Source: an uncultured delta proteobacterium (lineage in GTDB: Bacteria > Desulfobacterota > BSN033 > UBA1163). Taken from it: 64,000 nucleotides of DNA. The first letter of the stretch is position 1; each line of letters begins with the position of its first letter. The stretch lies in assembly GCA_963827685.1 (NCBI GenBank), contig CAWHBU010000003.1:1-64000 (forward strand), in the 5' to 3' direction. Below are positions 2,202-14,632 of this stretch, one piece after another. A model generated the notes under the pieces. That model did not search any database and was not told where the DNA came from. It saw nothing but the letters and a program-made list of their open reading frames with translations. Position numbers and translations under genes: made by a program.

Positions 2202-3541
2202 CGGCCTGTTGCTCAAAAGCCCAATTCAAAAATATCTGAAAATTTAAGTTTCGATGAATGATAGCCGGGGGTAAATAGAACCAAATAGCACCATTTGGCC
2301 AATTTTAAAGCTCATCAGCTCCTTAAAATCTGAAAAAGACCTTATCTCCCTTGTCACAGCCCCTTTGATCTGCTCCATCATTACCGATGGACTTCTCTTT
2401 AGGTAAGATCCATACCTCAGCAAAACCTCAATGTTCTGGACAGCAGAGATCAGGTATTCCTGTATCTGCACCCGCCAAAGCCCTCTCCATCGTGCCCGGT
2501 CATATCCATACCGCGTCCCTCTGGCATAGGAACGCTCCATCAAGTGTTGCCTCATTTTGATATCCCGCTTCGCTTTGGCCGATCGACTCGCCTCTCGCAT
2601 CCTGTCTAGATCTTCCTGCCTCAGATGTCGCTTAATTGTCCGACCCGACTTGTTCTTGGTACACTGCTCTCTTAAGTCACATATCGCACAAATCTTCTTG
2701 GGCGCAGCGTAATCTCTACTTTGCCGACTCATATGTAATGACCTAGGCTTCAACCGATGCCCAGCTGGACAACGATAGGTGTCACTCTCCCGATCATACT
2801 CAAACCGCTCTTCCCCAAAGATATTCTGCTTTTCTGTACGCTTCAATGAGATTTCCCTCAAATCCGGCATGTGAGCCTCTACCCCTCTATCATGACACGC
2901 CAAAAAGTTCTCGATCGTCCCGTATTTGCTGTCGGCCACCACCGTATCCGCCTTGATCCCTGTATTTAAATGGTGGCTCTCTATCAGAGGAATCATCTCA
3001 TGCGCTTCATTGACATCTCCTGTTGTCGTTTCGATCGCCGTGATCACTTCACTCCGCTCATCCACTGCCCGATGAACCTGATAGGAGAGTTTGGGCTTGC
3101 CACGATTCACAATCGATGCATCCGGATCGGTCGTTGAAATGTATCGGCTGTTCTCTTTGACGTATCTCCTCGAAGAATCCGTGCTCTCGCTCTTTTCCTC
3201 CAATCGCGCTTCCAGCTTCTTGTAGCCCTCCTGGAGTTGAACCTTCAACGATCGCGTGTCGATCACGGAGTTGTTCGATGCATCCGCATCCACCAGGCTC
3301 GAATCCACAAAGATCTTTCTGCCGTCCACTAACCCCGCCTCCACACATTGCCACACCATTCGCTCAAAGAACCCCCTAAACGCTTCCACTCCCCACCGCG
3401 CCCTGGCTTTACTCAAAACACTGTGATCCGGCACCTCGCTGTCTATGTCGTACCCTAAAAACCATAGCCAGTCTAAACGCATGGGGATCGTCTCCATCAA
3501 CTCTCGTTCCGATCGAACATTGTAAAGAACTAATAGCAACA
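2202..3541 (-). mobile_element. IS1182-family element, 5'-truncated copy
   Basis: Near-identical to the element at 4705-6325 from the same end (cggcctgttgctcaaa); identity stops at 3541, so the transposase N-terminus and second TIR are missing. Confidence 0.9.
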
Positions 3542-3699
3542 GTGAGATTGGAAATATTGCCGAATCAATTCATTATATGGAATCTGCCAGGGTTGAATTT
3601 ATGCAAGTGTTCAATAAAAATCACTATGTTCTTAAAGAAATAGAAAAGCATCTAAAAGTCCTCAGAAAAGTCGATAGTAAAACCGGCGACCGAGTCTGA
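3541..3699 (+). pseudogene. 3' remnant of an unknown gene fused to the truncated IS
   Basis: Open frame SEIGNIAESIHYMESARVEFMQVFNKNHYVLKEIEKHL...RV* starts exactly at the IS truncation point. Confidence 0.4.
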
Positions 3700-3766
3700 A
3701 CAGGCAATGGGTTACCCCTAAGGATTTAGATTAATATGAGTCACCTAAAAAGGGTATATCTTACCT

Positions 3767-4513
3767 ATGGTGAGGGGAACACAAATTCAGTTGAAGTTTG
3801 AACAGTTGTATGACGCTTATGATAAATCACTTGATAATGCGATGCGTCTACATGGAGCTGGTGTTAACCTATTGCATGAATTTCCAGATATTTCGTTGGG
3901 ATTGTTCGAACTCGGACAGGAAGAACTTGGAAAATCCTATACCTGTTTAGCAACGATGGCCGTGAAAAAAGGCGACCCAGCGTTCTGGAAGATATTTTGG
4001 AAAGAATGGAAGCAACATAATATAAAAGCTCGTAGAGCTTTCCTCTATGAATGGCTTAGTCCCCTCCATCTTGGAGCATCATCGTCGGATGGGATGAAGT
4101 TTAACGGATTTCCTTTAAGAAGTGAAATAGTGCTTGAGAGGGAATTTTCATTTTACGTCAATTATGATGATAAACAACAGAAGTTTACTAGTCCATTTGA
4201 GAGCGTGAGCAGAGCAGAAACCTTTAATCGTGCATGTGCGTTATCAAGCCTTATTTACACTGCCCTTGCTGTTAAAGAAACTTTGGATGTTGGTGAAAAG
4301 GAAAAAAATTATAAAACCTTTTCAATTATTCCATTTCGTATCCTTACAAAGTTCACCTATCAACAAGATATGCCGGGGTTATATCGAAAATTTTCAAGCA
4401 TATCATCGTATCATAATTCATTGATTGTGAGGCTCAAGGAAGCGTTCGACAAAAATAGAAGTGAGCTAAATAGTATGATCACGAAAGTCAAGGGAGACTT
4501 TGAGGATGCATGA
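3767..4513 (+). CDS. AbiV-family abortive infection protein (putative)
   Basis: SLDNAMRL...A..L, ELGQEELGK and a downstream HxxK (HNIK) pattern typical of AbiV-like proteins; AT-rich. Confidence 0.7.
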   Translation: MVRGTQIQLKFEQLYDAYDKSLDNAMRLHGAGVNLLHEFPDISLGLFELGQEELGKSYTCLATMAVKKGDPAFWKIFWKEWKQHNIKARRAFLYEWLSPLHLGASSSDGMKFNGFPLRSEIVLEREFSFYVNYDDKQQKFTSPFESVSRAETFNRACALSSLIYTALAVKETLDVGEKEKNYKTFSIIPFRILTKFTYQQDMPGLYRKFSSISSYHNSLIVRLKEAFDKNRSELNSMITKVKGDFEDA

Positions 4514-4704
4514 GGCATCGAAATAGCAAGAAATAGCAATGGGGTCAGGTCTTGCAATCACACATTCGATTTTAAGAGCACAGATGGGGAGATGTAGCTT
4601 CTAAAACAACTTGGCGTCGGTTGGTCATTTTTAAAGAAGCAGCAAATGGGGATATACCTTATTATTATGAACCTTCTCGGTCCCACCGGCTTGTGAAGAG
4701 TGTA

Positions 4705-6325
4705 CGGCCTGTTGCTCAAAAGCCCAATTCAAAAATATCTGAAAATTTAAGTTTCGATGAATGATAGCCGGGGGTAAATAGAACCAAATAGCACCATTTG
4801 GCCAATTTTAAAGCTCATCAGCTCCTTAAAATCTGAAAAAGACCTTATCTCCCTTGTCACAGCCCCTTTGATCTGCTCCATCATTACCGATGGACTTCTC
4901 TTTAGGTAAGATCCATACCTCAGCAAAACCTCAATGTTCTGGACAGCAGAGATCAGGTATTCCTGTATCTGCACCCGCCAAAGCCCTCTCCATCGTGCCC
5001 GGTCATATCCATACCGCGTCCCTCTGGCATAGGAACGCTCCATCAAATGCTGCCTCACTTTGATATCCCGCTTCGCTTTGGCCGATCGACTCGCTTCTCG
5101 CATCCTGTCTAGATCTTCCTGCCTCAGATGTCGCTTAATTGTCCGACCTGATCTGTTTCTAGTACACTGCTCTCTTAAGTCACATGCTGCACAAATCTTC
5201 TTGGGTGCAGCGTAATCTCTACTTTGCCGACTCATATGTAATGATCTAGGCTTCAACCGATGCCCAGCCGGACAACGATAGGTGTCACTCTCCCGATCAT
5301 ACTCAAACCGCTCTTCCCCAAAGATATTCTGCTTTTCTGTACGCTTCAATGAAATTTCCCTCAAGTCCGGCATGTGGGCCTCTACTCCTCTATCATGACA
5401 GGCCAAAAAGTTCTCGATCGTCCCGTATTTGCTGTCGGCCACCACCGTATCCGCATTGATCCCTGTATTTAAACGGTGGCTCTCTATCAGAGGAATCATC
5501 TCATGCGCTTCATTGACATCTCCTGTTGTCGTCTCGATCGCCGTGATCACTTCACTCCGCTCATCCACGGCCCGATGTACCTGATAGGAGAGTTTGGGCT
5601 TGCCACGATTCACTATCGATGCATCCGGATCGGTCGTTGAAATGTATCGGCTGTTCTCTTTAACGTATCTCCTGGAGGAATCCGTGCTCTCGCTCTTTTC
5701 CTCTAATCGTGCTTCCAGCTTCTTGTAGCCCTCCTGGAGTTGAACCTTCAACGATCGCGTGTCGATCACGGAGTTGTTCGATGCATCCGCATCCACCAGG
5801 CTCGAATCCACAAAGATCTTTCTGCCGTCCACTAACCCCGCCTCCACACATTGCCACACCATTCGCTCAAAGAACCCCCTAAACGCTTCCACTCCCCACC
5901 GCGCCCTGGCTTTACTCAAAACACTGTGATCCGGCACCTCACTGTCTATGTCGTACCCTAAAAACCATAGCCAGTCTAAACGCATGGGGATCGTTTCCAT
6001 TAACTCTCGTTCCGATCGAACATTGTAAAGAACTAACAGCAACATCATCTTCAGGATTACAGGAGGGGGAATGGACACATTCCCGTTGCCCCCATAGGTG
6101 TCTCTGACCTCTGCATAGATGAAGTTAAAGTCAATCTGCTCTTGAATCCTTCTCAGAAGGTGTGTCCGGGGAATCCTTTGTTCCAGGTTCATATGATGAT
6201 AGAAGATCTTCGGCTGAATTCCTGTCTGTTGTCCCATCATGGCAATATCTCCATTCCAGATTTGTGCTGCCATGCTTATAGCTCGAATGTATAATCGTTG
6301 CAAGCATCATTTGGGCAACAGCCCG
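4705..6325 (-). mobile_element. Complete IS1182-family insertion sequence
   Basis: 16-bp TIRs cggcctgttgctcaaa / tttgggcaacagcccg with 2 mismatches; 4-bp TSD TGTA at 4701-4704 and 6326-6329; the empty site is visible at 14680-14720. Confidence 0.93.
4747..6240 (-). CDS. IS1182 DDE transposase
   Basis: DUF772-like PPPVILKMMLL...SERELME...WFLG...PDHS, DSSLVDA, ADSKYG, YRCPAG and C..C.LR.QC motifs. Confidence 0.92.
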   Translation of the reverse strand: MMGQQTGIQPKIFYHHMNLEQRIPRTHLLRRIQEQIDFNFIYAEVRDTYGGNGNVSIPPPVILKMMLLLVLYNVRSERELMETIPMRLDWLWFLGYDIDSEVPDHSVLSKARARWGVEAFRGFFERMVWQCVEAGLVDGRKIFVDSSLVDADASNNSVIDTRSLKVQLQEGYKKLEARLEEKSESTDSSRRYVKENSRYISTTDPDASIVNRGKPKLSYQVHRAVDERSEVITAIETTTGDVNEAHEMIPLIESHRLNTGINADTVVADSKYGTIENFLACHDRGVEAHMPDLREISLKRTEKQNIFGEERFEYDRESDTYRCPAGHRLKPRSLHMSRQSRDYAAPKKICAACDLREQCTRNRSGRTIKRHLRQEDLDRMREASRSAKAKRDIKVRQHLMERSYARGTRYGYDRARWRGLWRVQIQEYLISAVQNIEVLLRYGSYLKRSPSVMMEQIKGAVTREIRSFSDFKELMSFKIGQMVLFGSIYPRLSFIET

Positions 6326-6353
6326 TGTAGACGCGACACCGATACTGAGACAC

Positions 6354-6394
6354 CAAACAAAAAAAGGGAGCCGGCGGGCTCCCTTTTTTTGTTT
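6354..6394. terminator. Bidirectional intrinsic terminator (duplicate of the etfA terminator)
   Basis: A-tract, gggagcc-ggcg-ggctccc hairpin, T-tract; same hairpin as at 14733-14769. Confidence 0.8.
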
Positions 6395-6414
6395 GGTTAT
6401 TTAAGTTCTGCGAC

Positions 6415-6566
6415 TTATTTTGATTTTAGCTCCTTTAATTTCGCGGTCAGAGCAGGCAAGACTTCTTTATAATCCCCGACGATACCGAAGTGGGCTACGC
6501 TGAAGATATTAGCCTCCTTATCCTTATTGATAGCCACAATGACCTTTGATCCCAAACAGCCAGCGA
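6415..6566 (-). repeat. Orphan etfA 3'-end copy 1 (about 152 bp)
   Basis: Encodes [49 protein letters not shown], matching the C-terminus of etfA at 14790. Confidence 0.95.
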
Positions 6567-6575
6567 CCAACAAAA

Positions 6576-6637
6576 GGGTCAGGTCTTGCAATAACACAAT
6601 AGAAACCGAAGCAACTTTTTGCTCTCGAAATGCCTCC
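6576..6637 (+). repeat. Left 62-bp inverted repeat (GGGTCAGGTCTTGCAA-type)
   Basis: 58/62 identical to the reverse complement of 7948-8009; a shorter related copy starts at 4541. Confidence 0.9.
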
Positions 6638-8009: not shown

Positions 8010-8081
8010 TGGCCTCGACTTTTAATAAGGAAAAGAAAAATTTAATTAACCCGAAAGTATTTTTTTGCCAAGAGAAAATTG

Positions 8082-9185
8082 ATGAAGATAGACCATTTCC
8101 AGGAAGAGGAAACTTACCTATTCTCCTCGCTTTTGAATAAACTCAAAGGACTATCTGAGAAGAATGTCAGCGTCACGACCAAGTGCCTCCTCGCCATTTT
8201 TTGGAAACTCCATGGAGAAAAACAATTTATCGACCCTCTTCTCAAGGATATCGAAACAGAAATCGTTGCTTATAACTCTGACCCCTCAAGGGAATCAAAC
8301 CGGATAAAAAAGGTGTTCGCATGCGCAGCTTACAAGGCTGCAGCAAAAAAGCCAAAATATGAAGATAAAATCCAAAATTATCTTTCATATGCAAGAGATT
8401 CAAAGGACTGGCTGGGGCAGCCAAGAATCGCATGTTGTCTCACCTTTTTGGGAAATGACCCAATAGCCGAAGAAGCGAGGGCTTATCTAAGGGAGAACTT
8501 CGGAACATGGCTATCAGAAGGCAAGCATGACTTTATCGCTGTCGCACTATTGGCCCTTAGAACAGAAATTTCAACTGGTGACTTACAGAGAATTCTGGAG
8601 CACGTTGAATCGGGCATCGCCAACCTACCCCTTGGCACAATCTCGATGTACCTTGCCGGATTTTCTCAGAGTAATGCGACCTTGCTAAACAAGGATGCCC
8701 TCGAAGACAGGCTGTACGAATCCATCCGAGATAGAGTTAAAGTAGCCCCTTCCCTTGAAGACGATGAGACAATCCTGGCTGCGACCGCATTATTCCTGGC
8801 AAAGTATCATAGAATCTCAGGGTATCTTGAGAAATATTCGGCGGAACTCAGGGAGACCCTTGCTCAGAAGGGCACTTTCGCTGAGGCCATAAAAAAAACC
8901 AAAACCCGAAATCTCTTGCTATGCATGACCCTTGTCGCCACCATAGGACTGATCTGCCTCATATTCTTCATTCCTTGGCTTGTTGAGTTCAAGGATAATC
9001 CTTCAGCATTTGGCCGACTTTTGCTGATGTTAAACACGAAAAAGGACTATGCACTCACTGTAGCTGCCGTGCTCGTCCTCTATATCCTCGTGTCATATTT
9101 CAAGAAGGGCGACCCTGTTTTGGGGATAGTGGATTATCTTCGTGAAAAAATCCCTGGGTTATTCAAGGGTGACAAGGAGAAATGA
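8082..9185 (+). CDS. Argonaute-associated alpha-helical protein with two C-terminal transmembrane segments (putative effector)
   Basis: Hydrophobic segments LLLCMTLVATIGLICLIFFIPWLV and YALTVAAVLVLYILVSYF; ATGA overlap with the Argonaute start. Confidence 0.75.
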   Translation: MKIDHFQEEETYLFSSLLNKLKGLSEKNVSVTTKCLLAIFWKLHGEKQFIDPLLKDIETEIVAYNSDPSRESNRIKKVFACAAYKAAAKKPKYEDKIQNYLSYARDSKDWLGQPRIACCLTFLGNDPIAEEARAYLRENFGTWLSEGKHDFIAVALLALRTEISTGDLQRILEHVESGIANLPLGTISMYLAGFSQSNATLLNKDALEDRLYESIRDRVKVAPSLEDDETILAATALFLAKYHRISGYLEKYSAELRETLAQKGTFAEAIKKTKTRNLLLCMTLVATIGLICLIFFIPWLVEFKDNPSAFGRLLLMLNTKKDYALTVAAVLVLYILVSYFKKGDPVLGIVDYLREKIPGLFKGDKEK

Positions 9186-11659
9186 AAATGGCAGATTTCA
9201 TAGCAATAAACGGGGCAAGACTTCCACGAGAAGAGATAGATTCAAGGGAAGTCTCTGTTATCACTATCCCCAATCTTTCAGTCGGCCATTCTGAATCCCT
9301 AAGAATCAAGCTCTTCAATGCTTGCGGCATGGTCAGCATCTATTACCGGAACGCGTTTTATTCTCTTCCGACGAAGGAAGAGCAAACGGACCCGGTTTCA
9401 ATACTTTCTGAAAGGATAAAAGATCTGGGAGAGATAGGCGAAGAAAAGAGGACCTTTTCAGAGCTGGATGATACTGTAAGGGAAAGGCTTCTGGTGGAAC
9501 TTTTCAGACATGCCGCCTCCAAAGCCACTTATTTCGGGATTTATGGACGGATATTTTTCAAGGCTGGTGATAATATTGACCCGTTTTTCACTCCTGCATT
9601 TGAGCTTTCCATAAGGGAATTTGAGAATTCATACGGTTATTTCATTAACCCAACTCTCTTGTCCATGGCAAACTGCACCCGGTTATTTGATAGGCTGCGC
9701 CAAGGAGATAGACTGATAAAGTTGTGCTCAAAAAGGTTCGAATGCAGCCTATTCCTGGAGGAAGGGAAATGCAAGTATTCTTACCCAACCTTTATCGGTC
9801 TTCTATCTGATTGTATCCCCAGAGATTCTAAAGATTTCGACAGTGAGCTGGATAACCTGGATTATGATCAATGCCCGGGGGTCGATGAGGAAGATTTTGG
9901 GATTTTGCACGTCAAAAGAACAAAAGATACCAAGATGGAGCATTCCTATCTAAGTTTTCTGGCATGCAGGGAGCTAACAGGGGCGGAGAGGCGTTCCTTC
10001 GGCATCGAAGATGAGTTCAGGAAGAAGCTGCTTCCTCCCTCGTCCGTCCGTTATCATCAGACGAAAACAATCATGGACAGTATATTCAAGAATGGTTCCA
10101 TTACCATCAATACTCTTGATTTTCCAGTAACGAGTGAGATAGGCAACTTTCATGAGCTCCCAACCGAAGGGGTCGCAATTGGGCTAGAAGAGCCCATGCT
10201 TCAGTTCGACCCAATCAACGAAGACCTCTGTTCAATAGAGCCATCGTCATTGTTTTTCAAGGGTGTCTTTGACGCATCATCGGCTTACAGACCTTTCAGC
10301 GCGATAAAGCCTTATGTGATCACCCCCAGCGACGCAAAACATAACCTGAACCAGGTTATTGACTGGCTGGCTGACGGAAAACAATACATTGATCGAGATG
10401 GAAGGCAGAAATTCGAAATTGTCGGCCTTAATCATAGATTCTCAAGATTCAACTGCAAGCTTGTATTGCCAAAGGAGGGCGATTACTTCTACGCTGATAC
10501 AGAAGAGAAGTTCATAGAGTCCGCTGATGCTATCGTGAACCAGTGGAACAACGACAACGAAAGGATTGTGCTTGTTGTACTCCCTGAGGCGGTCGAAGAA
10601 GATGATGAAGGGAAGCATGGGGAGTATGGGAGACCATTTTCCCTTTACTACCGGCTGAAAAAGATATTCGTTGAAAACGGTATCCCGTGCCAGATGATCG
10701 AGAAGGACACCTTTCCAAGAGTGGACAGGTATGTGTTGCAGAATCTTCTGGTGAACATCTACTCAAAAATGGGCGGAAGACCCTGGTCTTTGCATTCCCC
10801 GTTGAGTGATGTGAACGCCTTCATCGGGATAGGTTTTGGCTTGAACCCAAAGGCGACTGATAAGCATGTCTACATTGGAGTTGCCAATGTTTTTGACAGC
10901 CACGGAGAGTGGCTGGACATCTGCTCTGACCATAAGGACATAACAGAAGAGGAGAGGGATTCTTTCTATGGATATGAGGCATTCACTGAGAGATCGGTAA
11001 GCTACAAGTTATCAGAGGAGATGGCCCAGAAGATTGTTGAAGAATCACTCAAACGGTTCAAGGATACTAATCCAAACATCGGATTCCCAAGAAACATAGT
11101 CATCCACAAGAATGGTAATCTTTACGAATGCGAGATCAAGGGCATAATGGAAGCATTGAAAAAGCTTGAGGAAAGCGGGGCTGCATTCGAAAAGCTCGGA
11201 CTCTTGTCTATAATCCAGGATCATAATTACAAACTCTTCGGGAACGAAGATACTTTCGAGCGTGTAAGCAAGACGATAAAAGACAGGCCGCCCAAGAGGG
11301 GGGCAGTATATTTCCTTGATGAGAACGAAGCTCTTTTATGCACAACAGGCAAGTTCTATGGGGAGAGGCCCGGAGGAATGAAACTTATTTATAGTGGTCT
11401 TGGGACACCGAGGCCTCTTCTGCTTAGGAATCATCCGATTAATCCTGGGGATTACGGACTGCCGGAACTACAGCTATATTCCTTTGTTGAGTTGATAAAT
11501 CAGGTCTTTGGTCTTAGCAAGATACACTGGGGATCCTTGAGGACTGACATCCATCTGCCCGTTACCTCGATGTATTCAAGCAGGGTCGCTAAGGTCATCT
11601 CAAAAAGCGGGATAGAACGAATCCACAGGCCGGCAGCGAAAAGGCCTTGGTTTTTATGA
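9182..11659 (+). CDS. Long prokaryotic Argonaute (MID-PIWI), catalytically inactive
   Basis: MID YYRLKK..GIPCQMI..NLLVNIYSKMGGRPW; PIWI FIGIGFG, IVIHKNG, GTPRPL, QVFGLSKIHW, LPVTSMYS; ends in WFL; catalytic Asp positions are replaced. Confidence 0.92.
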   Translation: MKMADFIAINGARLPREEIDSREVSVITIPNLSVGHSESLRIKLFNACGMVSIYYRNAFYSLPTKEEQTDPVSILSERIKDLGEIGEEKRTFSELDDTVRERLLVELFRHAASKATYFGIYGRIFFKAGDNIDPFFTPAFELSIREFENSYGYFINPTLLSMANCTRLFDRLRQGDRLIKLCSKRFECSLFLEEGKCKYSYPTFIGLLSDCIPRDSKDFDSELDNLDYDQCPGVDEEDFGILHVKRTKDTKMEHSYLSFLACRELTGAERRSFGIEDEFRKKLLPPSSVRYHQTKTIMDSIFKNGSITINTLDFPVTSEIGNFHELPTEGVAIGLEEPMLQFDPINEDLCSIEPSSLFFKGVFDASSAYRPFSAIKPYVITPSDAKHNLNQVIDWLADGKQYIDRDGRQKFEIVGLNHRFSRFNCKLVLPKEGDYFYADTEEKFIESADAIVNQWNNDNERIVLVVLPEAVEEDDEGKHGEYGRPFSLYYRLKKIFVENGIPCQMIEKDTFPRVDRYVLQNLLVNIYSKMGGRPWSLHSPLSDVNAFIGIGFGLNPKATDKHVYIGVANVFDSHGEWLDICSDHKDITEEERDSFYGYEAFTERSVSYKLSEEMAQKIVEESLKRFKDTNPNIGFPRNIVIHKNGNLYECEIKGIMEALKKLEESGAAFEKLGLLSIIQDHNYKLFGNEDTFERVSKTIKDRPPKRGAVYFLDENEALLCTTGKFYGERPGGMKLIYSGLGTPRPLLLRNHPINPGDYGLPELQLYSFVELINQVFGLSKIHWGSLRTDIHLPVTSMYSSRVAKVISKSGIERIHRPAAKRPWFL

Positions 11660-13348: not shown

Positions 13349-13642
13349 ATGGAGAGAAAGAAGGCCGTTCTCAAAGAGGCTGGTGACGCACAATATTACG
13401 ATAAACACGGAGTTTTGAAAGAAATTATTGACGAACCGGTGGAAATGAGTTTAAAAACCGAACTACGCAGAAGTATCATTCTGGGTAAAAGGAGGAAAAA
13501 GCTAAAAAACATATCCATCAAGGTGGATCCGCTACAAATCCAGGCGATCAAGAAAGTTGCAGCGATGAAGTCCATCCCATATCAGATACTCATCCGTCAC
13601 TGGTTGTCTCAGAATCTCAAGGAAGAATTGCATATCGAATAA
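13349..13642 (+). CDS. BrnA/CopG-like antitoxin
   Basis: C-terminal ISIKVD...IK..A..K.IPYQ.LIR.WL ribbon-helix-helix pattern; directly downstream of the toxin. Confidence 0.82.
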   Translation: MERKKAVLKEAGDAQYYDKHGVLKEIIDEPVEMSLKTELRRSIILGKRRKKLKNISIKVDPLQIQAIKKVAAMKSIPYQILIRHWLSQNLKEELHIE

Positions 13643-13976: not shown

Positions 13977-14005
13977 TTGACAATGTTATAAAATGTGACT
14001 ATAAT
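13977..14005 (+). promoter_or_regulatory. Consensus sigma70 promoter of the RelE/Phd module (probably leaderless)
   Basis: TTGACA-17 bp-TATAAT; an ATG lies 7 nt downstream at 14013. Confidence 0.75.
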
Positions 14006-14012
14006 TATGGTT

Positions 14013-14330
14013 ATGGGTATTCCCTATAAATTAGTTTATGCTCCTCAAGTGAAACAGCATTCGAAGGCAATTGAGCCAAAATATTTTTCATTGATTCGTA
14101 CTAAAATTGAGACTCAATTGAGGCTTGAACCGACTGTCGAAACAAGAAACCGAAAACCCTTAAAGCAACAAGCTGACTTTGAAGGGGAATGGGAACTTCG
14201 TTTTGGCCCTGAAAATCGATTTCGAGTATTTTACGCAATAGATATAGAGAACCATGAGGTACAAATTCTGGCTATTGGTGTTAAAAAAGGAACCCGCCTT
14301 TTTATCGGTGGAGAGGAGGTTGAATTATGA
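14013..14330 (+). CDS. RelE/ParE-family toxin
   Basis: RNRKPL...WELRFG...RFRVFY......V.ILAIGVK. Confidence 0.85.
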   Translation: MGIPYKLVYAPQVKQHSKAIEPKYFSLIRTKIETQLRLEPTVETRNRKPLKQQADFEGEWELRFGPENRFRVFYAIDIENHEVQILAIGVKKGTRLFIGGEEVEL

Positions 14331-14632
14331 AGATTGCATCCGTTGCAGACGTTAAAGCAAAATTGAGTGCCTATTTGAGAGGATCTCAGGAAGGACCAGT
14401 CGTTGTCACCAGGAATGGAAAACCAGTGGGGGTTCTGCTGTCCGTGGAAGACGAAGAAGAATTGGAGCGGCTATTACTTGCTTATTCACCCCGTTTGCGA
14501 AAGATTCTTTTAGCCGCCCGAAATCAGATTCAATCCACTGGAGGCATCTCACACAGGGAATTCTGGAAAGAAATGGAAAAGAAAGTATCAATAGATCGGA
14601 AGAAAAGAATTTCTGGGATGAAAGCCGCTTAA
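14327..14632 (+). CDS. Phd/YefM-family antitoxin
   Basis: SVADVKAKLSAYL....GPVVVTRNGKPVGVL; ATGA overlap with the toxin. Confidence 0.9.
   Translation: MKIASVADVKAKLSAYLRGSQEGPVVVTRNGKPVGVLLSVEDEEELERLLLAYSPRLRKILLAARNQIQSTGGISHREFWKEMEKKVSIDRKKRISGMKAA

Follow-up and report, generated by a model that had tools for sequence, protein, structure and literature searches.

The first 64,000 nucleotides (nt) of contig CAWHBU010000003.1 from an uncultured delta proteobacterium (assembly GCA_963827685.1), referred to below as the window, contain two adjacent genes, one for a predicted membrane protein (the partner) and one for a prokaryotic Argonaute (pAgo) with replacements at three catalytic positions. 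The partner and pAgo genes are a conserved two-gene module, and the distribution of the pair is rare and sporadic. The pair is most likely a rare variant of the known abortive-infection systems that couple a pAgo to a transmembrane (TM) effector (SiAgo-Aga2, BPAM, and AfAgo-Af1317), and in our judgment it probably operates as a two-gene abortive-infection module in which the dead pAgo is the sensor and the membrane protein the killer. Systems with a dead pAgo and a TM effector are known in kind; this pair differs in the location of the effector gene upstream of the pAgo gene, a toroid-like domain in the effector, and an insert with four conserved cysteines (the Cys4 insert) in the pAgo. The coordinates of the pair are as follows.

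8082..9185, plus strand: partner gene, an open reading frame (ORF) of 367 amino acids (aa); an alternative TTG start at 8079 gives 368 aa
9175..9179, plus strand: Shine-Dalgarno sequence AGGAG for the pAgo gene, within the last codons of the partner gene
9182..11659, plus strand: gene for the putatively inactive pAgo, an ORF of 825 aa; likely start ATG at 9188

Both ORFs (8079/8082..9185 and 9182..11659) run in the same direction at the positions given in a preliminary description of the window, which had reported a 367-aa gene directly before an 825-aa pAgo gene. The same description had the pAgo start codon overlapping the partner stop codon, and an ATG at 9182-9184 does overlap the partner TGA at 9183-9185. 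This ATGA overlap is probably not used: translation of the pAgo more likely begins at 9188, with a 2-nt gap after the partner stop codon, because AGGAG is spaced 2 nt from the ATG at 9182 and 8 nt from the second ATG at 9188, and the consensus of the pAgo homologs begins ('MAD...') at the residue aligned with M3 of the window protein. The two genes are tightly coupled whichever start is used, and tblastn combined with ORF coordinates placed the pAgo start within a few bases of the partner stop in six other loci (L003-L008).

A search of 5.8 billion clustered proteins, with 8000 candidates scored, yielded 31 partner homologs at 42-91% identity. Exhaustive phmmer comparison with 1.84 billion proteins returned 12 representatives, all belonging to the partner's own small family; two of these are remote forms of 444-445 aa with an insert and, like the window partner, hydrophobic helices at the C-terminal end. 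The pAgo has 24 homologs of about 820-832 aa, and a search focused on the MID-PIWI region added relatives at 48% and 34% identity, bringing the clade to 27 members. Beyond this clade, only Schlafen-fused pAgos of ~1120 aa and two short pAgos were found, at 24-26% identity. We regard both genes as real because each has 24 to 31 homologs at 42-91% identity, which is far above chance.

The expectation that the partner co-occurs with this pAgo clade was borne out: the partner gene immediately precedes the pAgo gene in 7/7 loci that extend past the partner (the window and L003-L008; L009, at 1093 bp, ends inside the partner and was left out of the count). Ten further partner/pAgo pairs were linked by the identical size of their longest contig, together with one more divergent pair (P0058/P0056). 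The pairwise distances of 12 partner/pAgo pairs were strongly correlated (r = 0.94; 0/5000 Mantel permutations were as high), and the correlation was 0.79 when the most divergent pair was removed. The partner evolves faster, with a mean distance of 0.44 versus 0.32 for the pAgo. We read the correlation only as co-inheritance because sequence kinship inflates such statistics. No flanking gene was common to all loci, and no third conserved gene was found. The partner occurred in 1/401 genomes sampled from the phylum of the window genome, the carrier being the window genome itself, and in 1/301 genomes sampled from the phylum of the L003 genome, where L003's genome was the only carrier. A small ORF is located just upstream of the partner at L006:1096-1404 and L008:993-1205 (57% identity between the two); a counterpart was seen in neither the window nor any other locus.

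The pAgo can be divided into the following regions, all on the plus strand.

9182..10180, plus strand: N-L1-L2/APAZ-like region, pAgo residues 1-333, without a sequence-family match
9725..9874, plus strand: Cys4 stretch, pAgo residues 182-231 (C182, C188, C197, C231), a candidate zinc site from the alignment
10190..10297, plus strand: conserved linker, pAgo residues 337-372, EEPxLQFDP...DASSxxRPF, from the alignment and the predicted interface
10292..10786, plus strand: MID domain, residues about 371-535, with the putative 5'-phosphate pocket Y489, K493, Q504, K529
10787..11659, plus strand: degenerate PIWI domain, residues about 536-825, with G551, N644, and S800 at the catalytic positions and a C-terminal PWFL, from alignments and Pfam

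A search of Pfam, PADLOC, and NCBIfam indicated that pAgo/Piwi is the sole family matching either protein. The Pfam Piwi domain (PF02171) covers pAgo residues 488-726 (E 9.9e-20; 71.4 bits versus a cut-off of 28.9), and the PADLOC pAgo profile PDLC02436 matches with an E value of 5.6e-78; PDLC02436 was rejected as a marker of the clade, since long-A control genomes match it too. No APAZ, SIR2, TIR, or nuclease family in the three libraries matched the pAgo or the partner, in agreement with the preliminary description, which had seen no such motif.

That description had also proposed an intact MID pocket (Y, K, Q, K) and replaced PIWI catalytic positions, and our alignments support both points, indicating an Argonaute that has lost catalysis and kept its guide pocket. 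In an HMMER alignment with the short pAgo 8in8_C, residues Y489, K493, Q504, and K529 fall opposite its H/K/Q/K pocket, and they do not vary within the clade, down to a member of 28% identity. HMMER alignment to solved structures placed G551 opposite the aspartate of the CpAgo GLDVG motif and S800 opposite the YAD aspartate. The third position rests on a comparison of motifs and not on an alignment: the window pAgo has IVIHKNG (N644) where a long, active-looking pAgo has IVIHRDG. The DEDX tetrad of active long-A pAgos is therefore not kept at the three positions checked, all of which are replaced, and the FIGIGFGL and IHKNG motifs are invariant in the clade down to the 28%-identical relative. 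The best sequence match of the MID-PIWI region in the PDB was the SPARSA short pAgo 8in8_C (E 3.5e-13), and when the pAgo profile was compared by hhalign with four long-B (BPAS) pAgos, only 386-828, the MID-PIWI part, aligned (probability 98.7). One clade member of 812 aa (P0056) has a last stretch of ~60 residues that is wholly diverged from the conserved PIWI C-terminus, which suggests a frameshift or a misassembly of the metagenomic contig.

The N-terminal third is less clear, and the earlier designation of the protein as a long pAgo has weak support. The whole-chain AlphaFold2 model, built from 20 closely related rows, has a predicted local distance difference test (pLDDT) score of 53.6 and is poor because the alignment is shallow. 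On this poor model the N-terminal third matches SPARDA APAZ chains structurally and looks APAZ/N-L1-L2-like, and full-length Argonautes align to the model over residues 6-537 only at a very large root-mean-square deviation. The N-terminal 340 residues gave no sequence-family match to any Argonaute N-half in the family libraries or by hhalign against BPAS. The window pAgo is best described, as far as the model allows, as a single-chain, PAZ-less 'APAZ-like + MID + dead PIWI' Argonaute.

Two elements in and just after this part of the pAgo are well conserved. Cysteines C182, C188, C197, and C231 (C-x5-C-x8-C...C) are invariant in 20/20 rows and are kept in 6/6 divergent rows down to 28% identity; the stretch occupies the position expected for PAZ, at low pLDDT, and we consider it a candidate zinc module. 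In the linker that follows, E337, P338, L340, F342, D343, P344, D364, S367, and R370 are invariant, and this linker is disordered in the monomer model.

To place the pAgo, we used a MID-PIWI tree of 36 rows, which comprised 12/27 clade members, 5 Schlafen-pAgos, 4 pAgos followed by SIR2_2 genes (BPAS type), one split pAgo of Haloplanus, 3 long pAgos, and 11 short pAgos including SIR2-APAZ fusions and SMEK- or SIR2-associated ones. The candidates L013 and L023, which failed a phmmer filter, and the fragments L017 and L024 were left out, and the sample holds no BPAM, BPAN, RsAgo, SiAgo, or DdmE sequences. The pAgo clade received a support of 100, and its relation to the Schlafen, long-B, and short groups was an open polytomy. 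In the approximately unbiased (AU) test, neither the grouping of the clade with long-B pAgos (p 0.72) nor that with short pAgos (p 0.74) was rejected, and both constrained trees scored slightly above the quick free tree. Within this sample the window pAgo thus forms a clade of its own, and the tree sides with neither the long-B nor the short pAgos; the phylogeny called for in the preliminary description returned a distinct clade and did not discriminate between these two groupings. An 831-codon frame in genome G067, tried as a candidate for the clade, encodes another kind of pAgo, which has the motifs IHRDG and GIDLL and follows a PD-(D/E)XK gene. This pAgo (L026:4772-8133, contig C65; 816 aa) overlaps the stop of the 304-aa PD-(D/E)XK (PDDEXK_1) gene, and the pair resembles published pairs of a long-A pAgo with the Cas4-family ACE1.

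The regions of the partner are as follows.

8100..8819, plus strand: (alpha/alpha)6 toroid-like soluble domain, partner residues 7-246, predicted to be cytoplasmic
8907..8975, plus strand: TM1, partner residues about 276-298, a strongly hydrophobic helix after KKTKTR, from hydropathy and the model
9045..9104, plus strand: TM2, partner residues about 322-341, a weaker hydrophobic helix followed by KKGDPV and an amphipathic tail, from hydropathy and the model

The AlphaFold2 model of the partner, based on a 29-row family alignment, is all-helical with a pLDDT of 84.7, in accordance with the long helical soluble region noted earlier. It contains a twelve-helix barrel that was matched structurally as an (alpha/alpha)6 toroid; Foldseek with the model ranked similar kinds of protein, none of them at E <= 0.001. 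A linker helix connects the toroid to two hydrophobic segments. TM1 has a Kyte-Doolittle peak of 2.8, corresponds to model helix 263-294, and is present in 11/11 family members checked. TM2 has a peak of 1.9, corresponds to model helix 321-342, and falls below the cut-off of 1.6 in 5/11 members; the residues that follow it, D344, P345, and G348, are nearly invariant. The partner has no N-terminal signal sequence, which together with the two helices would be expected of an N-in/C-in hairpin that leaves the toroid in the cytoplasm. By model and hydropathy the partner therefore combines a soluble domain with a C-terminal TM region, as do effectors of the BPAM and SiAgo types.

The partner could not be assigned to any described family. 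Pfam, PADLOC, and NCBIfam gave no match to it, sequence and profile searches of the PDB gave only chance TM-type rows (best E 0.027), the ESM Atlas search gave no usable match, and tblastn against plasmids found nothing at E <= 1.

Modeling of the complex, also suggested in the preliminary description, supports direct binding of the two proteins. The predictions scored 0.82, 0.77, and 0.77, with none of the three controls above 0.00. The score mark is reached by 58/80 solved complexes and by 2/110 mismatched pairs, counts that are approximate here, the alignments being custom-built. At least 98% of contacts are shared between runs, and the partner pLDDT is at least 82. The closest contacts join pAgo residues 344-349 and 366-369 to partner residues 69-79 and 103-116; on the pAgo side these residues lie in the EEPxLQFDP...DASSxxRPF linker, and on the partner side they lie in the DPxRExNR and DWLGQPRIA motifs. 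MID/PIWI residues 419, 424, 539-543, 573-574, and 632-637 form the edge of the interface. Direct binding is thus a prediction, which supports an interaction and does not show it.

In the mechanism that we consider probable, the pAgo would load a small 5'-phosphorylated guide and sense complementary nucleic acid of an invader. The cytoplasmic toroid of the partner would dock on the L2-MID linker of the pAgo and the adjoining MID/PIWI surface, and the C-terminal hydrophobic helices of the partner would sit in the inner membrane. Target binding would change the conformation of the pAgo, and the docked toroid would relay the change to the membrane helices, which may then oligomerize or open, so that the membrane is depolarized and the infected cell dies or arrests. 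The type of guide, the activation by target, the membrane damage, and the role in defense are all argued by analogy with SiAgo-Aga2, BPAM, and EcBPAN.

Several of our results weigh against this mechanism. The complex was predicted from partial chains (residues 290-825 of the pAgo and 1-262 of the partner, with separate alignments), and the expected enrichment of conserved residues at the predicted interface was not borne out. Conservation of the partner interface was 0.625 versus 0.587 elsewhere (2575/10000 random sets as high), that of the pAgo interface was 0.768 versus 0.744 elsewhere (3690/10000 as high), and in the divergent 6-row alignment the interface was less conserved than the rest (0.53 versus 0.61). 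A complex predicted without nucleic acid also departs from the known systems because no stable complex was detected for BPAM and because effector binding by SiAgo and EcBPAN requires guide and target (PMC11788926, PMC13535254). Of the two TM helices in the partner that had been proposed, the first is firm and the second moderate. The domain calls in the N-terminal third of the pAgo are weak because the monomer model is poor (pLDDT 53.6). No holder of the pair was listed among 20 RNA runs, and no expression data were found.

The known systems are compared here as they are described in the cited passages of the published reports. SiAga2 of Sulfolobus islandicus consists of a soluble domain and two TM helices, binds only guide/target-loaded SiAgo-Aga1, and depolarizes the membrane (PMC11788926; bioRxiv 10.1101/2021.12.09.471704). 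The window pair resembles SiAgo-Aga1-Aga2 in having an effector with a soluble part and two putative C-terminal TM helices, in a soluble domain that binds the Argonaute complex (by prediction in our case), and in a sensor composed of MID-PIWI and a PAZ-less N-L1-L2 part, which in the window pAgo is a putative one; the output of SiAgo is membrane depolarization. It differs in that the N-L1-L2-like part is fused to MID-PIWI in a single 825-aa chain without a separate Aga1 (N-L1-L2) subunit, so that there are two genes instead of three, and in its bacterial host. No sequence similarity between SiAgo-Aga1-Aga2 and the window pair was detected, and the comparison is one of descriptions. EcbAgaN is described as docking its N-domain at the MID-PIWI interface after target binding (PMC13535254). 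Compared with SPARSA, SPARTA, and SPARDA (8in8, 9qbl), the window pAgo has an overall shape like an APAZ-pAgo fusion and an N-terminal third like the SPARDA APAZ; it differs from these short pAgos in that no SIR2, TIR, or nuclease domain is attached to the APAZ-like part, the effector is a separate membrane protein, and the first MID pocket position is Y where 8in8_C has H.

The system EaBPAM (Elizabethkingia anophelis; Song et al. 2023) kills Escherichia coli only with full-length bAgaM; the TM region of EabAgaM is 106 aa, and the pull-down reported there detected no stable pAgo-effector complex (PMC10620215). Like the window pair, it comprises two genes, for a single-chain dead pAgo and for one protein that joins a soluble N-terminal part to a C-terminal TM region, and is presumed to act by abortive infection. 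In operons of the BPAM and AfAgo types, the effector is located downstream of the pAgo (PMC10620215 section 6; PMC10954474 section 26), whereas the window partner is upstream in all seven loci. In addition, a direct complex was predicted for the window pair whereas the EaBPAM pull-down found none, and the window clade is separate from the sampled long-B pAgos, among which there was no BPAM pAgo. Manakova et al. (2024) described long-B effectors as a 'conserved alpha-helical domain' joined to TM, TIR, HEPN, or PD-(D/E)XK parts, with Af1317 being helical plus TM (PMC10954474). The AfAgo-N/AfAgo/Af1317 system and other long-B operons, split or single-chain, as described there share with the window pair a dead pAgo with a reduced or absent PAZ and a helical effector with TM segments; the AfAgo sensor is split, and that of the window is one chain.

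The closest alternative to our reading is that the partner is a highly diverged but ordinary member of the BPAM/Af1317 type, in which case the toroid would be the 'conserved alpha-helical domain' of Manakova et al., the gene order would be flipped, the mechanism would be the same, and the pair would add no more than a remote member. The architecture is indeed that of EabAgaM, SiAga2, and Af1317 as described, an N-terminal helical soluble domain with a C-terminal TM region, and in the AU test a union of the clade with the long-B pAgos in the sample was not rejected (p 0.72). On the other hand, the partner lacks any PADLOC, Pfam, NCBIfam, or PDB-sequence match, its only 12 relatives among 1.84 billion representatives are all of its own family, and its upstream location in 7/7 loci is opposed to the downstream effectors of the published BPAM/AfAgo-type operons. 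An operon of the AfAgo type was also compared. The Haloplanus rallus plasmid NZ_CP034344.1 (L031) carries at 2982-6588 three genes for a 329-aa N-protein, a 436-aa MID-PIWI protein ending in PWFL, and a 438-aa helical protein whose C-terminal helices are hydrophobic, in the published AfAgo-type order (N-protein, MID-PIWI, helical plus TM). Alignment of the partner profile with the helical-plus-TM protein by hhalign gave a probability of only 1.5%, and the pAgo profile gave no N-terminal match to the N-protein; no other plasmid homolog of the helical-plus-TM protein was found from which to build a profile. We think it unlikely that the partner is an ordinary member of that type. The Haloplanus N-protein carries a C-x3-C-x4-C-x2-H-x-H motif that recalls the Cys4 insert of the window pAgo; no alignment supports homology between them.

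The proposal of a new partner family accordingly holds at the sequence level only; EabAgaM, SiAga2, and Af1317 were compared by description, and the architecture of a soluble helical part with C-terminal TM helices is already found in SiAga2, Af1317, and bAgaM. Among the papers listed, our literature search found no description of this pAgo clade or of the partner; the supplementary tables of Song 2023 and Manakova 2024 (og_100 members, operons) may bear on this point.

The partner might instead be a membrane tether or regulator that holds the dead pAgo at the inner membrane, with interference achieved by binding or by recruiting host factors and without suicide. RsAgo-type long-B pAgos repress plasmids and are not known to use a killer, the complex was predicted without nucleic acid, and the membrane part of the partner consists of two short helices with no recognizable pore or channel family. 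Strict co-inheritance and co-divergence fit an effector as well as a tether, and the TM protein is a toxic effector in every characterized pAgo/TM pair covered by the cited passages (10.1101/2021.12.09.471704, PMC10620215). We consider a tether slightly less likely still than an ordinary BPAM/Af1317-type member. That the toroid is itself an enzyme or a lipid- or sugar-binding effector switched on by the pAgo, acting for example on isoprenoid lipids or envelope precursors, seems to us quite improbable: the invariant residues W110, G112, W143, E173, Y84, and Y242 could line a pocket, and the soluble domain of SiAga2 is described as binding anionic phospholipids (10.1101/2021.12.09.471704), but the partner matches no enzyme family in sequence and the pAgo linker fills the groove in the predicted complex. 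A pAgo with a membrane partner and no defense role, such as a housekeeping or regulatory one, is very improbable given the patchy, horizontally moved distribution, the defense and mobile neighborhoods, and a G+C content below that of the flanks, even though the function of the pair is argued by analogy and the RNA search listed no holder.

A bolder extension of the sensor-killer mechanism, which we put forward as possible but rather doubtful, is that the toroid is a general Argonaute-docking adaptor, perhaps the 'conserved alpha-helical domain' of long-B effectors, and that in this clade it clamps the L2-MID linker constitutively. The sensor would then be pre-assembled on the membrane, the signal would pass mechanically through the linker to a two-helix gate, and with its Cys4 module the pAgo would represent a fourth lineage of inactive pAgos. 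If this were true, the activation logic of the pre-formed complex would differ from that of SiAgo, BPAN, and BPAM, in which target binding has to precede recruitment of the effector. Of the outputs of Argonaute immunity, membrane effectors are understood least, and no structure of SiAga2 or bAgaM was found in our PDB sequence and fold searches or in the literature passages. The pair is a compact bacterial two-gene system, and the step that couples the sensor to the membrane is directly testable in it because the soluble domain is confidently modeled and a specific docking site is predicted. It also adds a separate clade of putatively dead pAgos that has a conserved cysteine module at the PAZ position and an effector gene upstream, not downstream.

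The pair lies within a ~12-kb stretch of lower G+C content (0.37-0.46 versus 0.50-0.54 in the flanks) that is bounded by genes for an electron-transfer flavoprotein and an Fe-S oxidoreductase. It holds a glyoxalase-like gene, and the following other features were noted in the neighborhood of the pair.

2244-3539, minus strand: DDE transposase ORF (DUF772 + DDE_Tnp_1_6), 431 aa
3767-4513, plus strand: AbiV/HEPN abortive-infection gene (Pfam HEPN_AbiV, E 3.8e-11; TIGR04498, E 2.2e-10), between two insertion sequence copies
4747-6303, minus strand: DDE transposase ORF (DUF772 + DDE_Tnp_1_6), 518 aa
7088..7873, plus strand: AbiGi-family gene (Pfam AbiGi, E 2.8e-34; PADLOC AbiGi, E 3.3e-47)
13349-13642, plus strand: CopG-like small gene, toxin-antitoxin-like, at the far end of the island
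13995-14330, plus strand: ParE/Gp49-like small gene, at the far end of the island
14327-14632, plus strand: Phd/YefM-like small gene, overlapping the ParE/Gp49-like gene

The two transposase ORFs are related, and that at 2244-3539, which lacks the start of DUF772, may be truncated. The gene directly after AbiGi is the pAgo partner, and no AbiGii-like gene is located beside AbiGi; the partner itself was ruled out as AbiGii, having no family match. AbiGi was rejected as a third component of the module because it does not accompany the pair at any of the six other loci. Downstream of the pair in L003 are the S and R subunits of a type I restriction system, and in L004 a DNA methylase and a Res-type helicase precede it. 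A defense or mobile neighborhood was thus found in the window and in 2/4 other loci whose flanks were scanned (L003 and L004), which supports the location of the pair in a defense and mobile island. Elsewhere, a stand-alone ORF of 202 aa was found on the minus strand at L002:1495-2103 (genome G000, contig C5, about 70.3-70.9 kb). It corresponds to a PIWI C-terminus, is 26% identical to pAgo residues 617-825, ends in PWFI, and has an unrelated ORF upstream; it looks like a pAgo remnant.

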